Positions 3,021 through 51,122 of a stretch of DNA of 64,000 bases are shown here, piece after piece. Under the pieces are notes generated by a model that saw only the letters and a list, made by a program, of their open reading frames with translations, did not search any database and was not told the origin of the DNA. Source of the stretch: Nitrospirota bacterium (GTDB lineage Bacteria; Nitrospirota; UBA9217). The position numbers were made by a program, and so were the translations under genes. The stretch lies in NCBI GenBank assembly GCA_963741205.1, contig CAVUHW010000015.1, positions 64,001 to 128,000 on the forward strand, given 5' to 3'. The stretch's first letter is position 1; each line of letters begins with the position of its first letter.

Positions 3021-3113
3021 TCCTGTTTTTGACCTTCCCGTTGTTTCCCTTGCCACGACCCGAAAATTCGGCTACAGTTACCGTATCGTCCTCATTGAAC
3101 CTGAAAACGGTAG

Positions 3114-3254
3114 TTGGACGCGGATCATCGCAGATTTACGCAGATAAAACCAGTCAGCACGATTGAAAATCCAATCACCGTTTGTGCAAAGTTTTTTATT
3201 ACGAAAAGATGTTTTTGTTTTCATCCGCGTTTATCCGATTTTATCTGCGTCCAA
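3114..3254. repeat. Inverted-repeat element with 10-nt periodic arms (acgcagattt type) and AT-rich core
   Basis: ttggacgcggat...cgcagatttacgcagat on the left; atccgcgtttatccgattttatctgcgtccaa on the right. Confidence 0.75.
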
Positions 3255-3292
3255 ATGCTCTTCATGGGTTGTAGGACCCGCAAAGGGGGGAC

Positions 3293-14376: not shown

Positions 14377-14385
14377 GCAAAGCAG

Positions 14386-14490
14386 AACCGGGGAACCGGG
14401 GAGAATAAAAACCGACGGAGAGAATCTGAGAAACGGAGAAAAAGTTTTACTCATGCCTACCCTTCTCCCGTTCGCCGATTCCCCATTCGG
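14386..14490. repeat. Octamer-period inverted-repeat remnant between gspC and gspD
   Basis: aaccggggaaccgggga...acggagag...acggagaa on the left; ttctcccgttcgccgattccccattc on the right. Confidence 0.55.
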
Positions 14491-14549
14491 CTCAGATGTC
14501 CTTTCAGCGGTTTGTATTTCCCGATCAATTCAAATCACGGAGGCAATGA

Positions 14550-16600
14550 GTGAAAAATAAAGCGGCCCTGCTGCTCCTGATAGGGCTTGTGTGCGCGCCT
14601 TTCGTATATGCCCAGGACCAGGAACCTCAAGCGCCTGCGGCCACTGCTTCCCCTGAAGGCCGGACCAAAACCAAAAAGACCAAATCGGGGGACGACTTCG
14701 TCACCCTCAATTTCACGAACATCGATATCAGCGCCCTCGTCAAGGTGATGAGCGAACTGACGCGGAGAAACTTCATCCTCGACGAGCGGGTGGCGGGCAA
14801 GGTCACGCTCATGACTCCGACGAAGATCTCGCCCGACGAGGCCTACCAGGTTTTTCTCTCGGCACTCGAGATCAAGGGCTTCACCGCGGTGGAGGACGGC
14901 AAGGTCATCCGTATCATTCCGGCGGCCACGGCCCGCCAGAGCGGCCTCAAGGTGTTACAGGACGGCGAGATGAGGGGCGAGGGATTCGTGACCAAGCTCA
15001 TCCGGATGAACTTCGTCAACCCCCAGGAGATCGTCCGCACCATCACGCCGCTCGTTACGAAGGACGGCAGCCTTATCGCCTATCCCACCACCAACTCGGT
15101 CATCATCACCGATTCGGTGTCCAATATCAGGAAGATCGAAAGTCTGATCCACGCGATGGATGTGGCCGCGCCCGAGGGCAAGGGCAAGATCAACGTCTAC
15201 TACCTCAGGAACGCCAGCTCCGAGGACATCGCCAAGCTGATGCAGGCCCTGGTGTCGCGGCTGCCCGTGCCGCCCGCGGGCGGGGCGGCCGCTCCCGCCG
15301 GGCCCTCGACGATCCTGGAGGGGAGCCGTCACCATCACGTCGGACAAGGCGACCAATTCGCTCATCATCGTCGGCTCGCCCGGCGATTTCGAGATCATGA
15401 AGGACGTGATCCAGAAACTCGACATCAGGCGCCGCCAGGTCTACGTCGAGGTCGCTATTATCGAAATGAGCTTGTCGAAGTCGCGCGAACTCGGGTTCGA
15501 GTTCCAGGCGCCGGTAAAAACGAGCAGCCTGGCCGAAAATGCCACATCAGCACAGCGCTGTGGGCGGCACCAACTTCGGCAACATAGGCCCCGCGATCGC
15601 AGGGGGACCTGCTGCTTTTGCACAGATAAACGGCCTGGCCGTGGGCGCGATCAAGGGCACCTTCACCTTCAAGGGCCAGCAGTTTTTGAGCGTAGGCGCA
15701 CTTCTTCATGCTCTCCAGACAGACTCTGATGTCAATGTGCTGTCAACGCCGAATATCCTCACCATGGATAACCAGAAGGCCGAGATCATGGTGGGACAGA
15801 ATGTTCCCTTTATCACGGGCCAGACGCAGAATGCGGTAACCGGCAGCCAGACCCTGTTTAACTCGGTCAACCGGCAGGACGTAGGCATCAAATTGTCGCT
15901 CACGCCGCAAATCGCCTCCGATGATAATGTCCGGCTCGATGTCAATCAGGAAATCTCCGATGTGATTGCTTCCACCAGCGCAAATGCCGCGGGCCCCACG
16001 ACCAGCAAACGTTCCGCGAGCACGACCGTTGTTGTGAAAGACCGCCAGACCATGGTCATCGGCGGCTTGATCCGCGACAACGTCACATCGTCTGAGTCGA
16101 AGGTGCCGTTCCTGGGCGATATCCCTCTCCTGGGCTGGCTTTTCAAGACCAAAACAACCACCATTGACAAAGCCAATCTCATGATCTTCATTACGCCCTA
16201 TATCATCAAAAGCGAGGGTGAGGGCACGGATCTGACCACGAGGACAAACGAGAAACTCGAAGATTTCCGGAAGGAATACCACATCGAGAAAAAAAGGTAC
16301 CTCCCTCCGCCATCCCGCCGAAAACGGGCGGAGCATCAGAACCGCCTGCTGTTGTCGTGCCGGGCTTGATGGAGAGGATGCCCCTTCCGGGACTGAAGTC
16401 GCAGCCCCGTGACAACCGCGCCTGCCAATATCCAGGAAAAGCCTGCGTCGGAACTGAAGACCGATACCTCCGTTACCGTCCCACAAAACAACAGTCCGTC
16501 TCAGGACGGAAGCCTCCCTCCTCCTGAGATAAAGACTGAGGTGACCCCTACGGCCCAGTCCCCTGTGAAATCCGAAACTCCCCAGGAGGGCGTGCGGTGA
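14550..16600 (+). CDS. gspD: Type II secretion secretin D (frameshifted)
   Basis: VTLNFTNIDI, LDIRRRQVYVEVAIIE, NVLSTPNILTMDNQKAEIMVG, KVPFLGDIPLLGWLF. Confidence 0.92.
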
Positions 16601-18286
16601 GACGCCTGCTCGGCGAGATACTCGTTGAGTCCGGGCTTTCTTCGGAGCGGCTCAAGAAGGCGCTCGACCTCCAGAAGAAGCGGGGCGGACGGATCGGCAC
16701 GCTCCTCATGCGCCTTACCTTCGTGACCGAGGAGGACGTGCTCAAGGCGCTCGGGGTCGCAGCTCGGTCTTCCCTACCAATCAGACCTGGGCGAGATCGA
16801 CCGCGAACTCGCGCTCAAGGTGCCGATCACGTATGCCAAGAAGGCCGTGGTCCTTCCGCTCCGGCGGGAGAACGGCACGGTCATTGCGGCCACATCTGAA
16901 CCGCTCAACCTTTCCACGGTCGACGATCTCGCGGCGCTCCTGGGCGCCGACATCTCGCTCTGCCTGGCCCCCACCGAACAAATCCTCGACACCGTCAACC
17001 GCCTCCACAGCGAAGGGCATGAACCGGGCCGAGGACACGGTGCAGGAGATGGAGGAAGAGGACCTGTCGTTCCTCGCCGCCGAGCTCGACGAGCCCACGG
17101 ACCTGCTGGAGGCCACCGACGACGCGCCGATCATCAGGCTGGTGAACTCGCTCCTGTCGCAGGCCATCCGCGAGCGCGCGAGCGACATCCACATCGAGCC
17201 CTTCGAGAAGGAAATGATCGCCCGCTTCCGCATCGACGGTATCCTGTACAACATCCTGACCATCCAGAAGCGCTTCCAGGCGAGCATCGCGTCGCGCGTC
17301 AAGATCATGTCGGGCCTGAACATCGCGGAAAAGCGGCTCCCGCAGGACGGCGGCATGCGGATCAAGATCGGCGGAAAGGACGTGGACATCCGCGTCTCCA
17401 TCGTGCCCACGGCCTTCGGCGAGCGAATCGTGCTCCGGCTCCTGTATCGCGAGAGCGCACTGTTGCCGCTCGATCAGATCGGCTTTACCGGCGACACGCT
17501 GACCCGGTTCAATGAGATTGATCAACGCGGCCCCACGGGATCATCCTCGTGACGGGCCCCACGGGCAGCGGCAAGACCACGACGCTCTACGCGGCGCTCT
17601 CGAAAATCAACTCGCCGGACAAGAACATCATCACCATCGAGGACCCTATCGAGTACCAGCTCAAGGGCATCGGCCAGATCCAGGTGAACCCCAAGATCCA
17701 ACTGACCTTCGCGGCGGGGCTGCGCTCCGTGCTCCGTCAGGACCCGGACGTGATCCTCGTGGGCGAGGTCCGGGACTCGGAGACCGCCGAGATCGCGATC
17801 CAGGCGGCGCTCACGGGACATCTTGTGTTCTCCACGCTTCACACGAATGACGCGGCCGGGGCCGTGACGAGGTTGATCGACATGAAGATCGAGCCGTTCC
17901 TCATCTCCTCCTCGGTCATGGCGATCCTCGCCCAGCGGCTGGTGCGCGTGCTCTGTAAACACTGCCGGGAACCCTACCCGATCACGGCCGCCGAGATAGC
18001 GGAGCTCGAGATCAAGACGGGCGCGCAGGGGGCGACTGTGTACCGCGCGAAGGGCTGCGAGGCCTGCTTTCACACCGGCTACCTCGGCAGGAGCGCGATC
18101 TACGAGCTCTTGACCGTGGACGATGACATCCGCCAGTTCATCATGAAAAATACCGACGCAGCCACGATCAAGGCGCAGGCCATGAACAGGGGCATGCACA
18201 CGCTGCGGCAGGACGGCGCGGAAAGGGTCCTCGCCGGAGTCACGTCCGTGGATGAAGTGGTGCGGGTGACGCAGAAAGAAGCGTAG
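16597..18286 (+). CDS. gspE: Type II secretion ATPase E (frameshifted)
   Basis: [50 protein letters not shown]. Confidence 0.93.
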
Positions 18287-18384
18287 GTCAGAAGACAGAA
18301 GTCAGAGATCAGAGCGAAGAGACCAGGAGACGACATGGTGTTCACCTTTGTCTATCTTCTGGCAACTCTGACACTCTGTACTTC
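18287..18384. repeat. Heptamer inverted-repeat element (gtcagaa / tctgac) between gspE and gspF
   Basis: gtcagaagacagaagtcagagatcaga on the left; ctctgacactctgtacttc on the right. Confidence 0.6.
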
Positions 18385-18397
18385 GTGATTGCAATCC

Positions 18398-19621
18398 ATG
18401 CCCGTTTACGAATATAAAGGCGTGACCGCTGCGGGGAAAAAGGTCTCCGGCGTCCAGGATGCCGAGAGCCTGAAGGCGGTAAGGTCGAGGCTTAAAAAAG
18501 ACGGCGTCACCGTCCTCGATATCCACGAGGGCGCGACTTTGCGTTCCGCCCGGCTTGGCTCGCCGGCAATGAAGCTTCGGCGCCCGGGTGAAGCTCGGCG
18601 ATCTTGCCAACGCGACGCGCCAACTTGCCACGCTCCTGTCATCGGGTCTTCCGCTGATGGAGGCCCTGTCGGTGCTCGTGGAGCAGGAGGAAAACGAGCG
18701 CCTGAAGGCGGCCATGTCGTCGGTGCGGGACTCGGTGCGCGAGGGCGCATCACTTGCCGACGCCCTCCATGGAGAACCCCACGCGTCTTCTCGCAGCTCT
18801 ACGTCAACATGGTCTCAGCCGGGGAGACGAGCGGGACCCTCGATATCACACTGGACCGGCTCGCGGATTTTCTGGACGAACAGGTCCGGTTTCGCGGCAG
18901 GATTTCCGCCGCCCTGGCTTATCCGGCCTTCATGACGGTCATTGGGGCGAGCATGCTCTTTTTTATCTTCAGCTTCGTGATGCCCCGCGTGGTTGGCATG
19001 TTCCAGGACATGAAGCAGCAGCTCCCGCTGATCACGCTCATTCTCCTCGCCACGGTGCGGTTTCTTTCGAACTTCTGGTGGGCGATCCTGCTGGTCATTG
19101 CCGGGGGCGTCTATTATGTCCGCCGGTATCTGCGCACGCAGGCGGGCAGGGAGGCCTTCGACGCGCGCATCCTCAGGATGCCGGTCTTCGGGAGCCTCAT
19201 CCGCATGATCGCCGTGTCGCGGTTCACTCGCACCCTCGGGACACTGCTTGAGAGCGGCGTGCCGGCGCTCACCGCCCTTGACATCGTGAAGAGCGTCGTA
19301 GGTAACACCGTCCTCGCGAACGCCATCCAGAAGGCTCGGGAAAACGTGCGGGAAGGCGAGCCCATCGCAGACCCCTTGAAGAGAAGCGGACTGTTCCCGC
19401 CCGTGGTGGTGCAGATGGTCGCCGTGGGCGAGAAGAGCGGGGAGCTCGAGAAGATGCTGCTCAAGATCTCCGACTCCTTCGACCGCACCGTCGAGACGCG
19501 GATCACGGCCCTCATGGCGCTCATGGAGCCGGTGATCATCCTCGCCATGGGCCTGATCATCGGGTTCATCGTGATCGCCATCATGCTGCCGATGCTCGAG
19601 ATGAGCTCGGGGGTGCGGTGA
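18398..19621 (+). CDS. gspF: Type II secretion inner-membrane protein F (compensating internal frameshifts)
   Basis: MPVYEYKG, TRQLATLLSSGLPL (alternate frame), AGETSGTL, VGEKSGELEKML. Confidence 0.92.
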   Translation: MPVYEYKGVTAAGKKVSGVQDAESLKAVRSRLKKDGVTVLDIHEGATLRSARLGSPAMKLRRPGEARRSCQRDAPTCHAPVIGSSADGGPVGARGAGGKRAPEGGHVVGAGLGARGRITCRRPPWRTPRVFSQLYVNMVSAGETSGTLDITLDRLADFLDEQVRFRGRISAALAYPAFMTVIGASMLFFIFSFVMPRVVGMFQDMKQQLPLITLILLATVRFLSNFWWAILLVIAGGVYYVRRYLRTQAGREAFDARILRMPVFGSLIRMIAVSRFTRTLGTLLESGVPALTALDIVKSVVGNTVLANAIQKARENVREGEPIADPLKRSGLFPPVVVQMVAVGEKSGELEKMLLKISDSFDRTVETRITALMALMEPVIILAMGLIIGFIVIAIMLPMLEMSSGVR

Positions 19622-19634
19622 AAATAAGTTCATT

Positions 19635-19729
19635 AACCACAGATGAACACAGATGGGCACTGTTTAAGACTTAAGAAATGAAAAATTATTAATCTTTAAA
19701 CCTGTGTTAATCTGTGTTCATCTGTGGTT
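19635..19729. repeat. Empty 10-nt-period inverted-repeat element (perfect 20-bp arms)
   Basis: aaccacagatgaacacagat ... atctgtgttcatctgtggtt. Confidence 0.9.
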
Positions 19730-19752
19730 TCAATTTTCTGAGGAGGTTTTGC

Positions 19753-20187
19753 ATGAAGAATCGGAAGGGTTTCACCCTCATTGAAATCATGGTCGTCATC
19801 ATCATCCTGGGTCTCTTGGCGGGCCTGGTGCTCCCCAAATTCCTCGGGCAGGAGGAGAAGGCCAAGGTCGAGGTGGCGAAGACGCAGATCCGCGCTCTTG
19901 AGGGGGCGCTGGACGCGTACAAGCTCGACAACGGGTTCTACCCCACGACCGACCAGGGACTGGACGCCCTGATCAAAAAGCCGGAAACGGGACGCATACC
20001 GGATAAGTGGCGGGAGGGCGGGTATCTGAAACCCGCGAGGATCCCGAAGGACCCCTGGGGCAAGGATTACGTCTACATCGCCCCGGGCAGCGAGAACAGG
20101 GAGTACGAGATCATTTCCTACGGCGCGGACGGCGAGCCCGGCGGCGAGGGCAACAACGCGGACATCGAGAGCTGGAAGATGCAATAA
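19753..20187 (+). CDS. gspG: Major pseudopilin G
   Basis: KG|FTLIEIMVV, YKLDNGFYPTTDQGL, KDPWG, SYGADG. Confidence 0.95.
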   Translation: MKNRKGFTLIEIMVVIIILGLLAGLVLPKFLGQEEKAKVEVAKTQIRALEGALDAYKLDNGFYPTTDQGLDALIKKPETGRIPDKWREGGYLKPARIPKDPWGKDYVYIAPGSENREYEIISYGADGEPGGEGNNADIESWKMQ

Positions 20188-20200
20188 TGCGGAATGCGGA

Positions 20201-20803
20201 ATGGATGCGCACCCCTCACCGCGTCCCTCTCCCCAGTGGGGAGAGGGGGGAAAAGAGAGTCCTCTCCCCCGCGGGGAGAGGATTAAGGTGAGGGGGGACT
20301 TATCGCATTCGAAAGGCTTCACCCTCATCGAGCTCACGGTCATCATCGTGATTCTGGGCGTCATGCTCTCGCTCATCATCCCCCGGCTCGGTGAGCTGGG
20401 CGAAGCGAACCTGAAGCGGAGCGCCAGGCACCTTACCGGGATGATCCGCTTCCTTCGGGACGAGGCGCAGGCGAAGAAATCCAGTTTCCGGCTGCGCTTC
20501 GACGTTGCGGAGGGACGATACTGGACCGAGGTTTTGACATTGAACCTCAGCGAGAAGACCGCCGAGTTCAGGCGGTATTCATCGGAAATGGGAACAGAGG
20601 GCAGTCTTTCAGGCCAGACGACATTGCGCGATGTCAAGGTTGCGAGCCATCCCGACGATCCGTATATCGAATTCTCGCCCACCGGATGGGTGGAGCACTC
20701 CTTGATCCATCTTCGTGACGGCGACGGACGGGATTTCACGCTCTTGGTCAATCCGCTCACCGGCAACACCGAACTCCGCGAGGGATATATCGAGGAGCGA
20801 TGA
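20201..20803 (+). CDS. gspH: Minor pseudopilin H with repeat-derived leader
   Basis: KG|FTLIELTVIIVILG; position in cluster. Confidence 0.8.
   Translation: MDAHPSPRPSPQWGEGGKESPLPRGERIKVRGDLSHSKGFTLIELTVIIVILGVMLSLIIPRLGELGEANLKRSARHLTGMIRFLRDEAQAKKSSFRLRFDVAEGRYWTEVLTLNLSEKTAEFRRYSSEMGTEGSLSGQTTLRDVKVASHPDDPYIEFSPTGWVEHSLIHLRDGDGRDFTLLVNPLTGNTELREGYIEER
20212..20297. repeat. GC-rich double-hairpin element inside the gspH leader-coding region
   Basis: cccctcacc...ccctctcccc-agt-ggggagaggg ... cctctccccc-gc-ggggagagg...ggtgagggg. Confidence 0.8.
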
Positions 20804-20808
20804 TGAAG

Positions 20809-20911
20809 AATTGCGGATTGCGATGGAAGTGCGGAAGGCAGGACTGATTCCGAATTCGGATTAGCTTGAATCGTTTACATTCCGCAATCCGCAATCCGCA
20901 ATCCGCAATCG
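20809..20911. repeat. Heptamer inverted-repeat element (ttgcgga / tccgcaa) at the gspH-gspI junction
   Basis: aattgcggattgcg on the left; (tccgcaa)x4 on the right. Confidence 0.85.
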
Positions 20912-21271
20912 AAGGGTTTCACTCTCCTCGAGGTCATGGTCGCCGTCTCGATCATGGCCATGGTGCTGGTGACCCTCATGGGGCTCAAAAACAGGTCCAT
21001 GCAGGACGTGGCGCTGGACGAGCATATCACCACGGCGACGATGCTGGCTGATGGGAAGATGCTGGAGACGATAAAATCACGGAACTTCGATGCAGTAGAA
21101 GAAGAGGGAGAATATCCAGCCGGGGAAAATCTTACGGAGTACACCTGGAAGAGAACAATCTCTAAAATACCGCTTCCCAACGGTACGTTGCTCACGGAGA
21201 TTCGTATTGCCACGCTGTGGAAAGAAGGCACGCGCCCGGAGATGGTGGAACTGGTGGACTATGAATTGTGA
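20870..21271 (+). CDS. gspI: Minor pseudopilin I (start codon unresolved)
   Basis: SKG|FTLLEVMVAVSIM in frame with 20936-21271; the frame is closed upstream by TGA 20867. Confidence 0.75.
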   Translation: MVYIPQSAIRNPQSKGFTLLEVMVAVSIMAMVLVTLMGLKNRSMQDVALDEHITTATMLADGKMLETIKSRNFDAVEEEGEYPAGENLTEYTWKRTISKIPLPNGTLLTEIRIATLWKEGTRPEMVELVDYEL

Positions 21272-21994
21272 AATTTCGGATTTCGGATTTCGGATTTCGG
21301 AATGGAGAATGCTGAGGTTCCAAAAGAACTCAAATCCGCAATCCGCATTCCGCAATCCGCAATCGAACGGGTTCACGCTTCTTGAAGTGCTTATCGCCGT
21401 GGCGATCATGGCGGGAATCATTACCGTTATCTATCAGAGTTTTTTTACCGCAAGCAGAAACGTTGAACAGGCGGAAGCAATACGGGATTCGTCTGACATG
21501 GCGCGCACCCTGGTGGCGAAAATCTCCGATGATATATCCAATGCATATTATAATCAGGCAATGAACAGGTCCGCAGTCATTACGATTTTCAACGGTAAGA
21601 AGGAACAGGCTGATTCGACTGGACGAGAAAAGCAGGCTTGACAGCATTACCCTGACAACACTTACGAACTGGAGACGGCCGAACACGAAAGAGACCGATC
21701 TCTGGGAAGTCGGTTATTTTTTCAGGCAAAAGCCGGATGGCTCGGGTTATGTCATGATGCGCAGGGAAAAGCGGGAACTCAGCAAGGATGTACCGGCAGG
21801 CGAGGGCGGCAATCGAGTATGAGATCACGGACCGCGTGAAGTTTTTGCAGCTGCGGTATAACACGGGTGGAGACACCTGGTACGATGAATGGAACAGCAC
21901 GAGCCGGAACGGGCTCCCAAAACTGGTGGAGATAGCGCTGACACTCGACAGCGGGTTGACCTACTCAACATACGTTGAAGTTCAAAAATATTAG
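21261..21994 (+). CDS. gspJ: Minor pseudopilin J (frameshifted) with repeat-derived leader
   Basis: NG|FTLLEVLIAVAIM; C-terminal WYDEWNS...LPKLVEIALTL. Confidence 0.8.
21272..21366. repeat. Heptamer inverted-repeat element (tttcgga / tccgcaa) in the gspJ leader
   Basis: (tttcgga)x4 on the left; tccgcaa tccgcat tccgcaa tccgcaa on the right. Confidence 0.85.
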
Positions 21995-22016
21995 CCGACG
22001 CGTCAGGGAGTGCGGG

Positions 22017-22839
22017 GTGCGGAAGGGTCATCATTGGGTGCGCAACAGTCGCGGGGTGGCGCTTATCATCGTTCTTTTGGTTACGGCGCTTTTGATCGCG
22101 TTGATTTTTGAGTTTGCCTACGGAACGCGGGTGAGCCTCCGTGCCGCCGTAAACTTCCGCAACAGTGAGAGGGCATATTTTCTCGCACGCTCGGGTTTCG
22201 GGGTATTCGCCAGGTTTCCCGAAGTGCGGGATTATTATCATCAAGGGGAATTGAGTGACCCCCTTCCTTTCGTGAGTGAAGCCGACAAGGAACTGAGAGT
22301 CCTATGGGAAGATGAGCGCGGAAAAATCAATGTGACAAACATATCCAGGGGGAATGTCGCTTTCAACCGTCTCACGAATCTATTTTCCATTCTCCAGATC
22401 GACCAGGGCATTCTTGACCAGATCAGTTCATGGATGACCAATGAGCAAAGAGGCTTCTATTTGCTTACCGAGCTTCACCTGTTCCTGAGCGACGACGACT
22501 ACCGGAAAGTCGAGCACTTTCTGACGGTAAACAACAATACGGACGAGAAGATCAACATAAACACCGCACCGTCCCAAGTTCTTCAAAGTCTCGGGTTAAG
22601 CGCCCCGGATGCAGACCGTATTGTTGATTCAGCAAAACAAGAACCCTTTGATCCAGGCAAAAAACCTGATCAATACCGCACCCGGTATGACCGCGATGAT
22701 CGCCGGACAATTGGTCACGTCAAGCAACGTGTTCAAAGTCAGCTCAATCGCAACGGTAGGCGGTTACACAAAGCACATTGATGCTATCATGACGATGAAC
22801 GGTCCTCAATACACCATAAACTACTGGAGAGCGCTTTGA
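22017..22839 (+). CDS. gspK: Minor pseudopilin K (frameshifted near 22660)
   Basis: RG|VALIIVLLV, DERGKINV, KININTAP. Confidence 0.85.
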
Positions 22840-24168
22840 AGATCGTCGGTTTGAAGATCGAGCAGGGAAGGGTCGCCGCGTCGGTCGTCGAGCAGGGCCT
22901 GCGCCAGACGGAGCTCGCGGGCTCCTTCAGCCTTCCTTTCACATCGGACGCCGAACTCGCGGACATCCTGCGTGAGAGAGTCGCGGGAGTGGGCCGGCGC
23001 GCGCATCGTCTCGTCCATGCCCGGGGCGCGGTTCAGCCAGCGAACCGTGACGTTCCCCTTTGCCGACCGCAAGCGCGTGGAAAAAGCCCTGCCGTTCGAA
23101 CTGGAAGACAGCATTCCCTTTCCCCTGGACGACGTTGAGATCGATCACCTCGTGCTGGACCGGCCCGGGACAGCGGCGGACAAAAAGAAAGAACACGTGA
23201 TCGTCGGCATCATGGTCTCGAAACCCGCCCTGAGGCAGCATCTCGAACTCCTCGCCGCGGCCGGCATCGACCCGCAGGTCGTCGTCCCTTCCTACGTCGG
23301 TCTCTGGTGTGTCGCGAAAAGAATACCGTCGGAGGGCATCTCCGTCTTCATCGACGGCAGCGACATCTGCCTCAAGGATGGAAATGCGGTTTTGTCCTGC
23401 CGAAGTTTTTCAACCGCGCAGTCCACCGGCGGCATCCGCCAAACACTCAAGGCGATGGAGACCGAGCACGCGGTCCAGATCGAGCAGGCCTTCCTCCTCT
23501 CCGAAGACAGCAGGATGCGCGCGGAGCTTGCGGAGCTGGGGCTCACGGTCGATCAGGCCGCATTCGACTTGCACGGCAAGAAGGCGGAAGACCCCGGAAG
23601 CCTCGGCCTTGCCCTGTGCGAGCAGACGAATTTCCGCAAAGGGGAATTCGCGTACCGGCGCGCCGACGTGGGCGTGCGCAAGCGGAGGCTCACGCTCGTC
23701 ATCGCGGGGGTCGTTGCCGCGGTCCTTGCAGCCGCGAACCTGGGCGTGAAGTTTTATCTGGTCGAGTCCAGTTACGGCAAGCTGGACCGGGAGATCAAGG
23801 AAGTCTACCGGAAAACGTTTCCGGAGGCCAAAATCGTGGCCGATCCGGTCCGTCAGCTCCGGTCCCGGCTCGATGAAGCGCAGAAAAAATTCGGGGTCCT
23901 CGGCTCCGGTTCGTCCGTCCTCGACGTTATGAAGGCGGTGACCGACGGGATCCCCAAGGAAGTGCGCGTCAGTTTTCAGGAGTTCATCCTTGAAGGCGAC
24001 CGGCTGAAGCTTTCGGGCGATGCGGCCTCCTTTGAATCCGTGGACAAGATGAAAGCCGAGCTTCAGAAGGCGGAGCCCTTCTCCGACGTCCAGGTCCTGG
24101 ACACGCGGATGGGCGTGGACAACAAGGTGAAGTTCCGGTTCGAGATGAAGCTGAAGCAGTCGATGTAG
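22836..24168 (+). CDS. gspL: Type II secretion protein L (frameshifted near 22980)
   Basis: Actin-like N domain ALPFELEDSIPFPLDD, single TM, periplasmic ferredoxin-like C domain. Confidence 0.8.
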
Positions 24169-24182
24169 ACCACGAGGAATGT

Positions 24183-24535
24183 GTAACCACAGATGAACAC
24201 AGATGGACACGGTAAAGACAGAGACAATGACCCTGAAAAGGATTCTTTATAAAGAATTAACAAAGGATAATCTGGACTCGGCTTTTAAAATACATAATGC
24301 CTGGGTTGCGGCTGCTGGAAAAAGTTTATGGCAATGCTCTGATATGGGATCTGGAACTAAAAAAGAAAAAAGTTTCAATGCAGCAACAATACAGCTGTTT
24401 GGTACTGATATCGTCGAAGAAAATCGTGGAAAAAATCTGTAACGGCGAGTTGCTCAATTATTTAAGGATTCTGGGTCGTGTTGGTCCTAATGGACCGAAA
24501 GAGTATGTTTGTTTAACGTGTTCATCCGTGGTTAC
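24183..24535 (+). mobile_element. Inverted-repeat-bounded element carrying a decayed GxxExxY (PDDEXK_3) gene
   Basis: Arms gtaaccacagatgaacacag...cgtgttcatccgtggttac; AT-rich interior reads ILYKELT..SAFKIHNA/GCG/LLEKVYGNAL..ELK and ELLNYLRI..RVG across frames. Confidence 0.75.
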
Positions 24536-24549
24536 AACAGGAGCATTTC

Positions 24550-25050
24550 GTGAAACTTGAAGAACGGGACAAAAAGGTGCTCATCTTCGGCGGCGCGGCG
24601 GCGGTGCTCATCCTGCTCTACGCCCTTGTCCTTTCCCCGCTTACTGCGGACCTCTCCCTCAAACGGGAATTGATCCCGAAGAAGGAGAAGGACCTCGCGG
24701 AGATCAAGACGCTCAGGACGCAGTATCTCGACATCCAAAAGCGGCTCCAGGAGGCCCAGGCCGCGGCTGCGCAGCGGGGGCCTCTGCTCACGGACATCGA
24801 AAGCATCTCCAAACGGGCGAACCTCTCGAGCAAGATAGTCTCGCTCAAGCCGCAGGCGGGCGTCCAGACCGCGGGCTTCACGGAGAGCATCGTCGAGGTC
24901 AAGCTGGAGAACATAACGCTCTACGACGTCGTGACCTACGTCTATATGCTCGAGAAGGACACCCTGCGGATCAGGAAGCTCCAGTTCAAGCCGCGGTACG
25001 ACAATCCCAAACTGCTGAACGCGACCATCCTTGTATCGAGCGCCGGGTAG
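24550..25050 (+). CDS. gspM: Type II secretion protein M
   Basis: ERDK+TM, coiled coil, VEVKLENITL...LRIRKL; position in cluster. Confidence 0.8.
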   Translation: MKLEERDKKVLIFGGAAAVLILLYALVLSPLTADLSLKRELIPKKEKDLAEIKTLRTQYLDIQKRLQEAQAAAAQRGPLLTDIESISKRANLSSKIVSLKPQAGVQTAGFTESIVEVKLENITLYDVVTYVYMLEKDTLRIRKLQFKPRYDNPKLLNATILVSSAG

Positions 25051-46531: not shown

Positions 46532-46617
46532 TAACCACAGATGAACACGGTTAAAGACAAATCAGAAAATCTAAAGTTCCGCTTTTATCCGTGTCTATCC
46601 GTGTTCATCTGTGGTTA
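46532..46617. repeat. Empty 10-nt-period inverted-repeat element
   Basis: taaccacagatgaacacgg ... ccgtgttcatctgtggtta. Confidence 0.9.
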
Positions 46618-51019: not shown

Positions 51020-51122
51020 ACCGCGAAGGCGCGAAGGACGCAGGAAAGCAAACTCATGAATCCTGGTTCAGACAACAGATATTGACGTATGGTTTACTTC
51101 GCGCTCTTCGCGCCTTCGCGGT
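51020..51122. repeat. 9-nt-period inverted-repeat element (perfect 17-bp arms)
   Basis: accgcgaaggcgcgaag ... cttcgcgccttcgcggt. Confidence 0.85.

Follow-up and report, generated by a model that had tools for sequence, protein, structure and literature searches.

Homing enzymes of the PD-(D/E)XK type exist, and we know of no stand-alone PD-(D/E)XK nuclease that copies a repeat. In REPIN/RAYT systems, hairpin populations depend on a matching RAYT, as described in 10.1101/2021.07.10.451892. The family PF13366, which includes the GxxExxY proteins, is listed with the function 'Unknown' in PMC3424549. Our literature search for a GxxExxY/PF13366 cassette class returned no description, and a supplement or a database note may hold one.

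Here we analysed an element in a 64,000-nt stretch of Nitrospirota DNA (hereafter the window), located within a gsp operon between gspL and gspM. An earlier note, made from the sequence of the window, had described it as a small repeat-bounded element with a decayed GxxExxY gene. Relatives from the same family were compared at this junction, together with other GxxExxY loci and the dispersed copies of their arms. The window element may be best understood as a broken copy of a resident nuclease-gene cassette, one part of a two-part repeat system of which gene-less hairpins would be the other.

Structure of the window element

The element lies between gspL (22972-24168, forward strand, stop at 24168), assigned by TIGR01709 and frameshifted in its 5' part in the assembly, and gspM (24550-25050, forward strand, start at 24550), whose match to NF040576 is below the cut-off. 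Its inverted arms, 24182-24200 and 24518-24536, are 19 nt long, 95% complementary and separated by 317 nt. The left arm is built of 10-nt units and represents a two-unit allele class (24182-24212, forward strand): it starts 13 nt past the gspL stop codon with the core inverted repeat (24182-24200), followed inward by a second 10-nt unit. The right arm (24518-24536, forward strand) is of a one-unit class; it abuts the stop codon of the enclosed gene and ends 2 nt upstream of the gspM AGGAG ribosome-binding site (24539-24543). The broken GxxExxY (PF13366/TIGR04256) gene occupies 24227-24516 on the forward strand, i.e. 290 nt from ATG to the orthologous stop, and intact copies measure about 380 nt. 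The GC content of the element is 39% vs 56% for the genome.

The earlier note had reported arms around a broken GxxExxY frame between gspL and gspM, and this was confirmed, with intact orthologues found at the same junction. The peptide pieces cited there do occur in the element, spread over different frames. The assignment of the frame by HMM held for the family and failed for the window copy itself: the intact orthologue L013 is a full member of PF13366 (E 4.7e-39, 133.8 bits vs a cut-off of 22), while the broken frame alone scored below both cut-offs (PF13366 E 0.012, 16.4 bits, cut-off 22; TIGR04256 E 0.003) and was not among the matches of a genome-wide PF13366 scan. Despite this score, the window gene is identified as GxxExxY because intact orthologues sit at the same junction; its similarity to them is evident with tblastn (E 3.5e-14) and blastn (E 1e-25, 80% over 131 nt). 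The closest named records of the intact protein are from Nitrospirota.

The same arms recur empty within the window, as had been proposed. One gene-less hairpin (19635-19729) lies between gspF and gspG and has orthologous empty copies in relatives; another (46533-46616) stands directly past a stop codon, upstream of a small zinc-ribbon-like gene. Altogether, the window genome holds 13 inverted pairs of the window-type arm, 12 of them gene-less, including the two in the window. The spacers of these 12 empties are AT-rich and 30-97 nt long, and no gene remnant was found in them. The 18-nt arm pattern occurs 17 times in the window genome and its reversed control 0 times.

The gspL-gspM junction across the family

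The junction was classed by eye in 55 genomes of this Nitrospirota family. The cassette is present in 13 of them (nine intact and four broken, counting the window genome), nine retain only an arm or the 3' end of the gene as a remnant, 27 show a short spacer or a different repeat in its place, and in six the junction is not assembled. Thus full, empty and absent alleles, which the earlier note had suggested looking for, were all found, along with remnants. Carriers are distributed among seven genus codes. With the intact protein as query (E<=1e-45), the 55 genomes yielded 11 matches in 10 genomes, all at gspL-gspM, and the genome with two matches has two gsp operons. In a quick tree of 136 proteins, ten intact gspL-gspM copies grouped together as a single clade (SH-aLRT 99). 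The cassette site is old and polymorphic. Since this subfamily has one address and one copy per operon, it is not a multicopy insertion sequence; the earlier picture of a small autonomous element found no support as far as a jumping insertion was meant, this subfamily having been found only at gspL-gspM, the site being shared by at least seven genera, and no target duplication having been found.

The gspF-gspG junction, read by eye, showed window-type arms in six of the nine relatives with the gene (one partial) and clearly in none of the nine without it (one doubtful). It should be added that none of the 18 relatives has a gene at gspF-gspG.

Concerning inheritance, the host topology was weakly rejected for the 13 gspL-gspM copies (p-AU 0.028), and a window-genus clade on the gene tree was not rejected (p-AU 0.086). 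Distances of the gene correlated with those of the host with a Mantel rho of 0.35, vs 0.77-0.84 for three 370-nt host stretches (12 taxa). Third-position divergence in 257 same-site pairs was usually higher in the gene than in its flanks (0.55 vs 0.43). We take these data to mean that the cassette has long resided at its site and has occasionally been replaced there, a claim limited by synonymous sites that are near saturation.

Alternatively, the cassette could be a free-standing homing element, whose nuclease would cut cassette-less gspL-gspM junctions and copy itself in, leaving the empties as deletion products. Such a scenario is consistent with the presence of one subfamily per home site, with the existence of partial deletions and 3' remnants, and with same-site copies from different genera that can be closer to each other at third positions than their flanks (L088/L094, 0.27 vs 0.39; L082/L106, 0.28 vs 0.47 and 0.40; L107/L132, 0.32 vs 0.58). 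However, the gene was less diverged than the flanks in just 38 of the 257 same-site pairs, cross-genus ones included and ranked after the fact, and inspection of the cassette-less gspL-gspM junctions by eye revealed no conserved sequence that might serve as a target. The 12 empties carry no gene remnant and none of them is at the mapped site of any of the 136 full cassettes, and the gspF-gspG site is empty of the gene in all 18 relatives. We therefore consider homing very improbable, the least probable of the mechanisms weighed here.

Integrity of the window copy

Taken at face value, the sequence of the window copy predicts an inactive gene. It has frameshifts in the first half and several multi-base gaps in the second, one of which spans the E-x-K catalytic stretch in the alignment. 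It is about 90 nt shorter than intact copies, with several losses of 8-28 nt each. Furthermore, its end classes disagree (two-unit on the left, one-unit on the right), whereas the left and right ends belonged to the same class in the four ranked intact alleles, as they did in the intact copies compared.

The element had been called 'caught mid-decay'. This is uncertain, because the copy combines two allele classes and the assembly has frameshifts in many places; the breaks may be partly an assembly artefact. In our judgement the copy is probably a real decayed recombinant. There is a smaller, still appreciable chance that the gene is intact in living cells and that its breaks represent a consensus of error-prone reads or of two alleles: the window has interrupted versions of gspD, E, J, K and L, which are mostly whole in 20 relatives, and the mixed end classes are unlike those of intact alleles. 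Against such an artefact, the assembly typically errs by inserting one base too many (4 times in the 1690 nt of gspE), whereas the cassette shows almost only losses, several of them of 8-28 nt; the neighbouring gspM and gspN are clean in the window assembly; and deleted and remnant cassette alleles also occur in other genomes. This question is independent of that of the mechanism, and the value of the locus lies in the intact orthologues.

As a separate observation, the frameshifts in gspD, E, J, K and L (window 14550-22835) are absent from relatives, pointing to consensus errors of the assembly and not to a dead secretion system.

The GxxExxY protein

The gene is under strong purifying selection, with mean pN of 0.13 and pS of 0.73 in 36 pairs from nine copies; one copy, whose gspM was not extracted, was left out. 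The corresponding values for gspM were 0.13 and 0.54, and GC3 was 0.42 in the gene vs 0.79 in gspM.

A Q-x-x-x-Y motif is a trait of RecB/Cas4 proteins. Alignment of 73 family proteins revealed G26, E31, D70, E80, Q94 and N111 as invariant, and K82, Y34 and Y98 as conserved in at least 90% of the sequences. In the predicted model (pLDDT 95), E31 is located in helix 31-44, D70 in strand 62-73, and E80 and K82 in strand 77-82, a placement that fits the canonical PD-(D/E)XK core as described in PMC3424549. The top structural match was Cas4 SSO0001 (Foldseek E 2.7e-4; Z 8.4, rmsd 3.5, 99 aligned). A type IIG restriction domain nearly tied with it (Z 8.1 vs 8.4), and therefore only the fold class is established. 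No relative turned up when the sequences of the PDB were searched with the 73-sequence profile, and PADLOC gave weak Cas4 matches only. Overall, the 125-residue protein belongs to the PD-(D/E)XK superfamily, whose fold its structural neighbours share, and, judging from its conserved residues, is a predicted nuclease.

Arms of GxxExxY genes

The 55 genomes contained 219 PF13366 matches; 130 loci out of 150 of these were analysed, favouring the best-scoring, along with 8 gspL-gspM loci. Of these, 136 were full length and 133 had enough flank for the arm test. Inverted arms were detected at 126 of the 133, as compared with 1% of shuffles, 2% of random genome windows and 11% of combinations of left and right flanks from different loci, so that the enrichment anticipated in the earlier note was borne out. 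Arms and gene are one unit, as had been suggested; at gspL-gspM this unit sits at a fixed operon junction, and its gene is single-copy and conserved, with catalytic residues kept. Outside Nitrospirota, arms were found at 25 of 31 loci from ten phyla, after exclusion of 5 of 36 loci with short flanks or partial matches.

The arms share a core, C-R-C-R-R-A, whose units recur at a spacing of 8-10 nt. Arm versions are specific to the individual protein clades (136 proteins; kin share labels, so that the pattern alone is no proof of co-evolution). Up to 13 PF13366 matches of many subfamilies were present per genome. The 136 cassettes fell into 52 flank clusters, with some sites holding different subfamilies in different genomes; in the window genome, these sites variously show a complete cassette, a copy with a deletion, arms of a different type without a gene, a different family of repeats, or nothing at all. 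Beside 107 cassettes there was no excess of target duplications of 3-9 bp, which old sites may have lost, and the two-base signals seen there are paired palindromic dinucleotides.

Two further interpretations of the arms were tried and rejected. They are not terminators: T-rich sequence precedes and A-rich sequence follows them on both strands, the reverse of a terminator. The terminal TGT...ACA of the window copy, which we take to be Tn7/Mu-like, is not conserved across copies and hence is no feature of the element.

Cassettes are embedded among genes of the same strand, with such a gene within 150 nt upstream of 108 of 131 and downstream of 110 of 132; median distances were 7.5 nt from stop codon to arm and 19 nt from arm to start codon. 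This proximity would suit an RNA system comparable to the intervening sequences of 23S rRNA, in which the arms pair in the operon mRNA, are cut by RNase III or by the protein and tune the stability of the segment, the hairpins being kept by the host for that purpose. RNA folding also predicts that the arms pair into a closing stem (z -2.8), and left and right arms co-vary in base and unit number in intact copies, as seen by eye. On the other hand, arm mismatches that would pair as G-U on the sense strand were fewer than those that would face each other as A-C (68 vs 122; by site 12 vs 19, ties at 13, not significant), which gives no support for selection on an mRNA stem and slightly, though not decisively, favours DNA. 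In addition, the closest folds of the protein are DNases, many relatives have a gspL-gspM junction of <40 nt without a hairpin, and five loci had no match in Rfam. An RNA system thus appears quite improbable, though a little less so than homing.

Several other repeats were recorded during this survey. The window genome (G000) has three further GxxExxY cassettes, each with its own arm type (C43:48242-48580, C22:152677-153012 and C50:1685-1968): one with an apparent single frameshift and possibly intact in vivo, one with several frameshifts, and a third that has lost a large internal part. Hairpin pairs of the GxxExxY type, from many subfamilies, number at least 38 in this genome; an empty hairpin with the arms of another subfamily adjoins a 7-mer repeat array at window 51020-51122. 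REP-like hairpins and those of other subfamilies are nested in or beside GxxExxY arms as mosaics (L250, L251, L252, L255, L262, L267, L291). Inverted repeats fill nearly every gsp spacer in the window (14377-14549, 18287-18394, 20188-20310, 20800-20910 and 21270-21365); they comprise 7-mer arrays and a CCCTCTCCC-type hairpin, and which repeat family occupies a junction varies from one relative to another. A parallel cassette was noted at the gspM-gspN junction of G065 (L182), with a small gene, presumably a DUF559/Vsr-type nuclease by its looks, between CCCTCCCC-type arms; arms of this type are also found empty in the window at about 20225-20295.

Dispersed arms and the matching gene

Exact arm patterns were counted in the 55 genomes, with two arms deducted per resident cassette, and evaluated by within-genus permutation. 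Window-type arms had a median of 5.1 per Mb in genomes with the gspL-gspM gene (n=13) vs 0.30 in those without (n=42; p 0.006), although genus corrects for kinship only coarsely and not all of the genomes are complete, several being partial. A second arm/gene pair, from the junction of two other housekeeping genes, gave 6.4 (n=12) vs 0.48 (n=43; p 0.001). The third pair, picked after the first two, gave 1.75 (n=6) vs 0.29 (n=49; p 0.007), with the three highest counts (44, 37 and 33) in genomes without the matching gene. Non-matching arm/gene pairs had p values of 0.04, 0.37, 0.08 and 0.40, and the two arm counts correlated weakly (rho 0.30). Dispersed arms are, consequently, abundant mainly where the matching gene is present, and the likeness to REP/RAYT suggested in the earlier note gained substance from this match across genomes for three pairs.

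Exceptions were found as well. G025 has an intact gene and only 1 arm, and G012, with no junction cassette, has 23 arms (7 MITE-borne); G034 and G078 have 28 and 43 arms, and their gspL-gspM junction is not assembled. The four broken copies are accompanied by as many arms (15-38) as intact ones. No spacer is shared among the 12 empties of the window genome (best local score 24) and the gspF-gspG empty is old, and therefore no recent copying event has been caught in this genome. In four genomes examined by eye (G022, G026, G019 and G062), dispersed arms seem to have the same unit length, 8 or 9 nt, as the arms of the resident cassette: in G022, 17 of 19 dispersed units are nine-nt, as are the units of its cassette.

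GxxExxY-type arms are spread by an IS-derived MITE as well. In one relative, at least 12 near-identical 165-nt units, with spacers 91% alike, contain the arms inside outer inverted ends. This IS1380-type MITE is flanked by 5-bp duplications, perfect in 8 of 13 copies, and the same outer ends bound PF13701 (IS1380-family) transposase genes in another relative. Its envelope carries arms of many GxxExxY subfamilies, with the left arm sometimes differing from the right. The only clearly recent multiplication of window-type arms that we saw is inside this MITE. More generally, MITEs measuring about 155-185 nt were observed at L279-L293, L299-L328 and L342-L345; they have IS1380-type ends, a small hairpin in the centre and AT-rich target duplications of 5 bp, and one copy lies in the window at 3100-3268 (duplication 4/5). 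Locus L340, at first taken for an IS1380 element with these arms, was set aside for the simpler reading of a transposase copy nested in the MITE.

The GxxExxY gene might be a passenger, with the hairpins spread by something else (host recombination, IS1380 MITEs or an HUH transposase), the cassette serving only as a template and the nuclease being kept for a different task such as DNA repair or defence. Arms of many subfamilies inside a MITE with 5-bp duplications speak for this, as do the hairpin repeats that fill almost every gsp spacer with families varying between genomes, and the weak Cas4 similarity of the protein. The idea that cassettes are decayed IS1380-enveloped elements was nevertheless rejected, since the envelope was found at 0 of 126 gene-bearing cassettes even with two mismatches allowed, and no window-type arm in the window genome has a MITE end beside it. 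Moreover, the arm-gene match persisted after removal of MITE-borne arms (window-type, 4.9 vs 0.30 per Mb, p 0.005), the three PF01797 transposase genes of the window genome have no such arms beside them, and arm type follows protein clade across the 136 proteins, in which kin share labels. Taken together, we regard a passenger gene as unlikely, although it is more credible than either homing or an RNA system.

We favour, with a probability of roughly 55%, a mechanism in which the empty hairpins are seeded or maintained by the Cas4-like protein, through recognition of its own arms and together with host recombination, the cassette being sometimes exchanged between lineages. In such a mechanism, the protein would nick or cut at the arms, in hairpin or cruciform DNA; new junctions would then receive copies of the arms by host recombination, with no target duplication, and occasionally the whole cassette would be swapped between lineages at its home site. 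Because the cassette closely follows a stop codon and is closely followed by the ribosome-binding site of the next gene, it is likely read from the host operon transcript at little cost. The case for the protein acting on the arms is one of correlation, and a cassette that served as template only would give a similar pattern.

A wider generalisation is tentative and, in our estimate, rather doubtful: GxxExxY genes would form a widespread, undescribed class of replicators, in which a minimal Cas4-like nuclease with neither transposase nor integrase places copies of its own arms at operon junctions and transfers its cassette from one lineage to another at a home site, with many orthogonal pairs per genome. 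If true, REP-like populations could be driven by an enzyme that has no kinship with RAYT, the system would be a convergent counterpart of REPIN/RAYT based on new chemistry, PF13366 would gain a function, and a set of very small, sequence-coded nuclease/target pairs would become available. PF13366 is a large prokaryote-wide family, and the arm-gene match names a specific candidate substrate for each subfamily. Should the protein prefer its own arms, a large share of intergenic hairpins would be explained, beginning with the 38 or more pairs of the window genome.

Comparison with known systems

The intact orthologue shares a Cas4-like core fold, and differs from Cas4 in that no iron-sulfur cysteine set is found among its conserved columns and no cas gene is beside the gspL-gspM cassette.

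The intervening sequences (IVS) of 23S rRNA, as presented in PMC4990558, are similar in being AT-rich units of about 430 nt with a small ORF closed by a stem and read from the host transcript, and in that the ORF is prone to decay and was horizontally acquired and then kept. The cassette differs from them in its location between protein genes, in its nuclease fold instead of S23p, and in its dispersed empty family.

Homing endonucleases in rRNA insertions (PMC11270868) resemble the cassette in site-specific residence, signs of lateral replacement and a cycle of intact, broken and lost states. However, the cassette has no intron or intein and no conserved empty target, and its arms and dispersed empties have no counterpart there.

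IS1380 MITEs are likewise short non-coding units with inverted ends, and one such MITE carries the same arms inside. Unlike IS and MITEs, the cassette and the empties of the window genome have no MITE ends, target duplication or shared spacer, and the cassette encodes no transposase.

The cassette system works like REPIN/RAYT, and is not a member of it; by the tests above, it is also not an IS, a MITE or an rRNA IVS. Both systems, with REPIN/RAYT as described in 10.1101/2021.07.10.451892, comprise a single-copy enzyme gene at a fixed intergenic site and extragenic hairpins of about 100 nt with two inverted arms and a poorly conserved spacer; in both, arm populations are tied to the matching enzyme and scarce without it, which holds here for three pairs, with exceptions. 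The enzyme of the cassette, on the other hand, is PD-(D/E)XK by Pfam and fold and not an HUH (Y1) tyrosine transposase, and the PF01797 genes of the window genome lie elsewhere, without window-type arms. RAYT trees are described in the same source as congruent with the host, whereas the GxxExxY gene appears to follow its host poorly (rho 0.35 vs 0.77-0.84; host topology p-AU 0.028, window-genus clade p-AU 0.086). Finally, and unlike REPIN/RAYT as presented there, the GxxExxY gene lies inside one arm pair, its arms are made of 8-10-nt units, and many subfamilies coexist in a genome.
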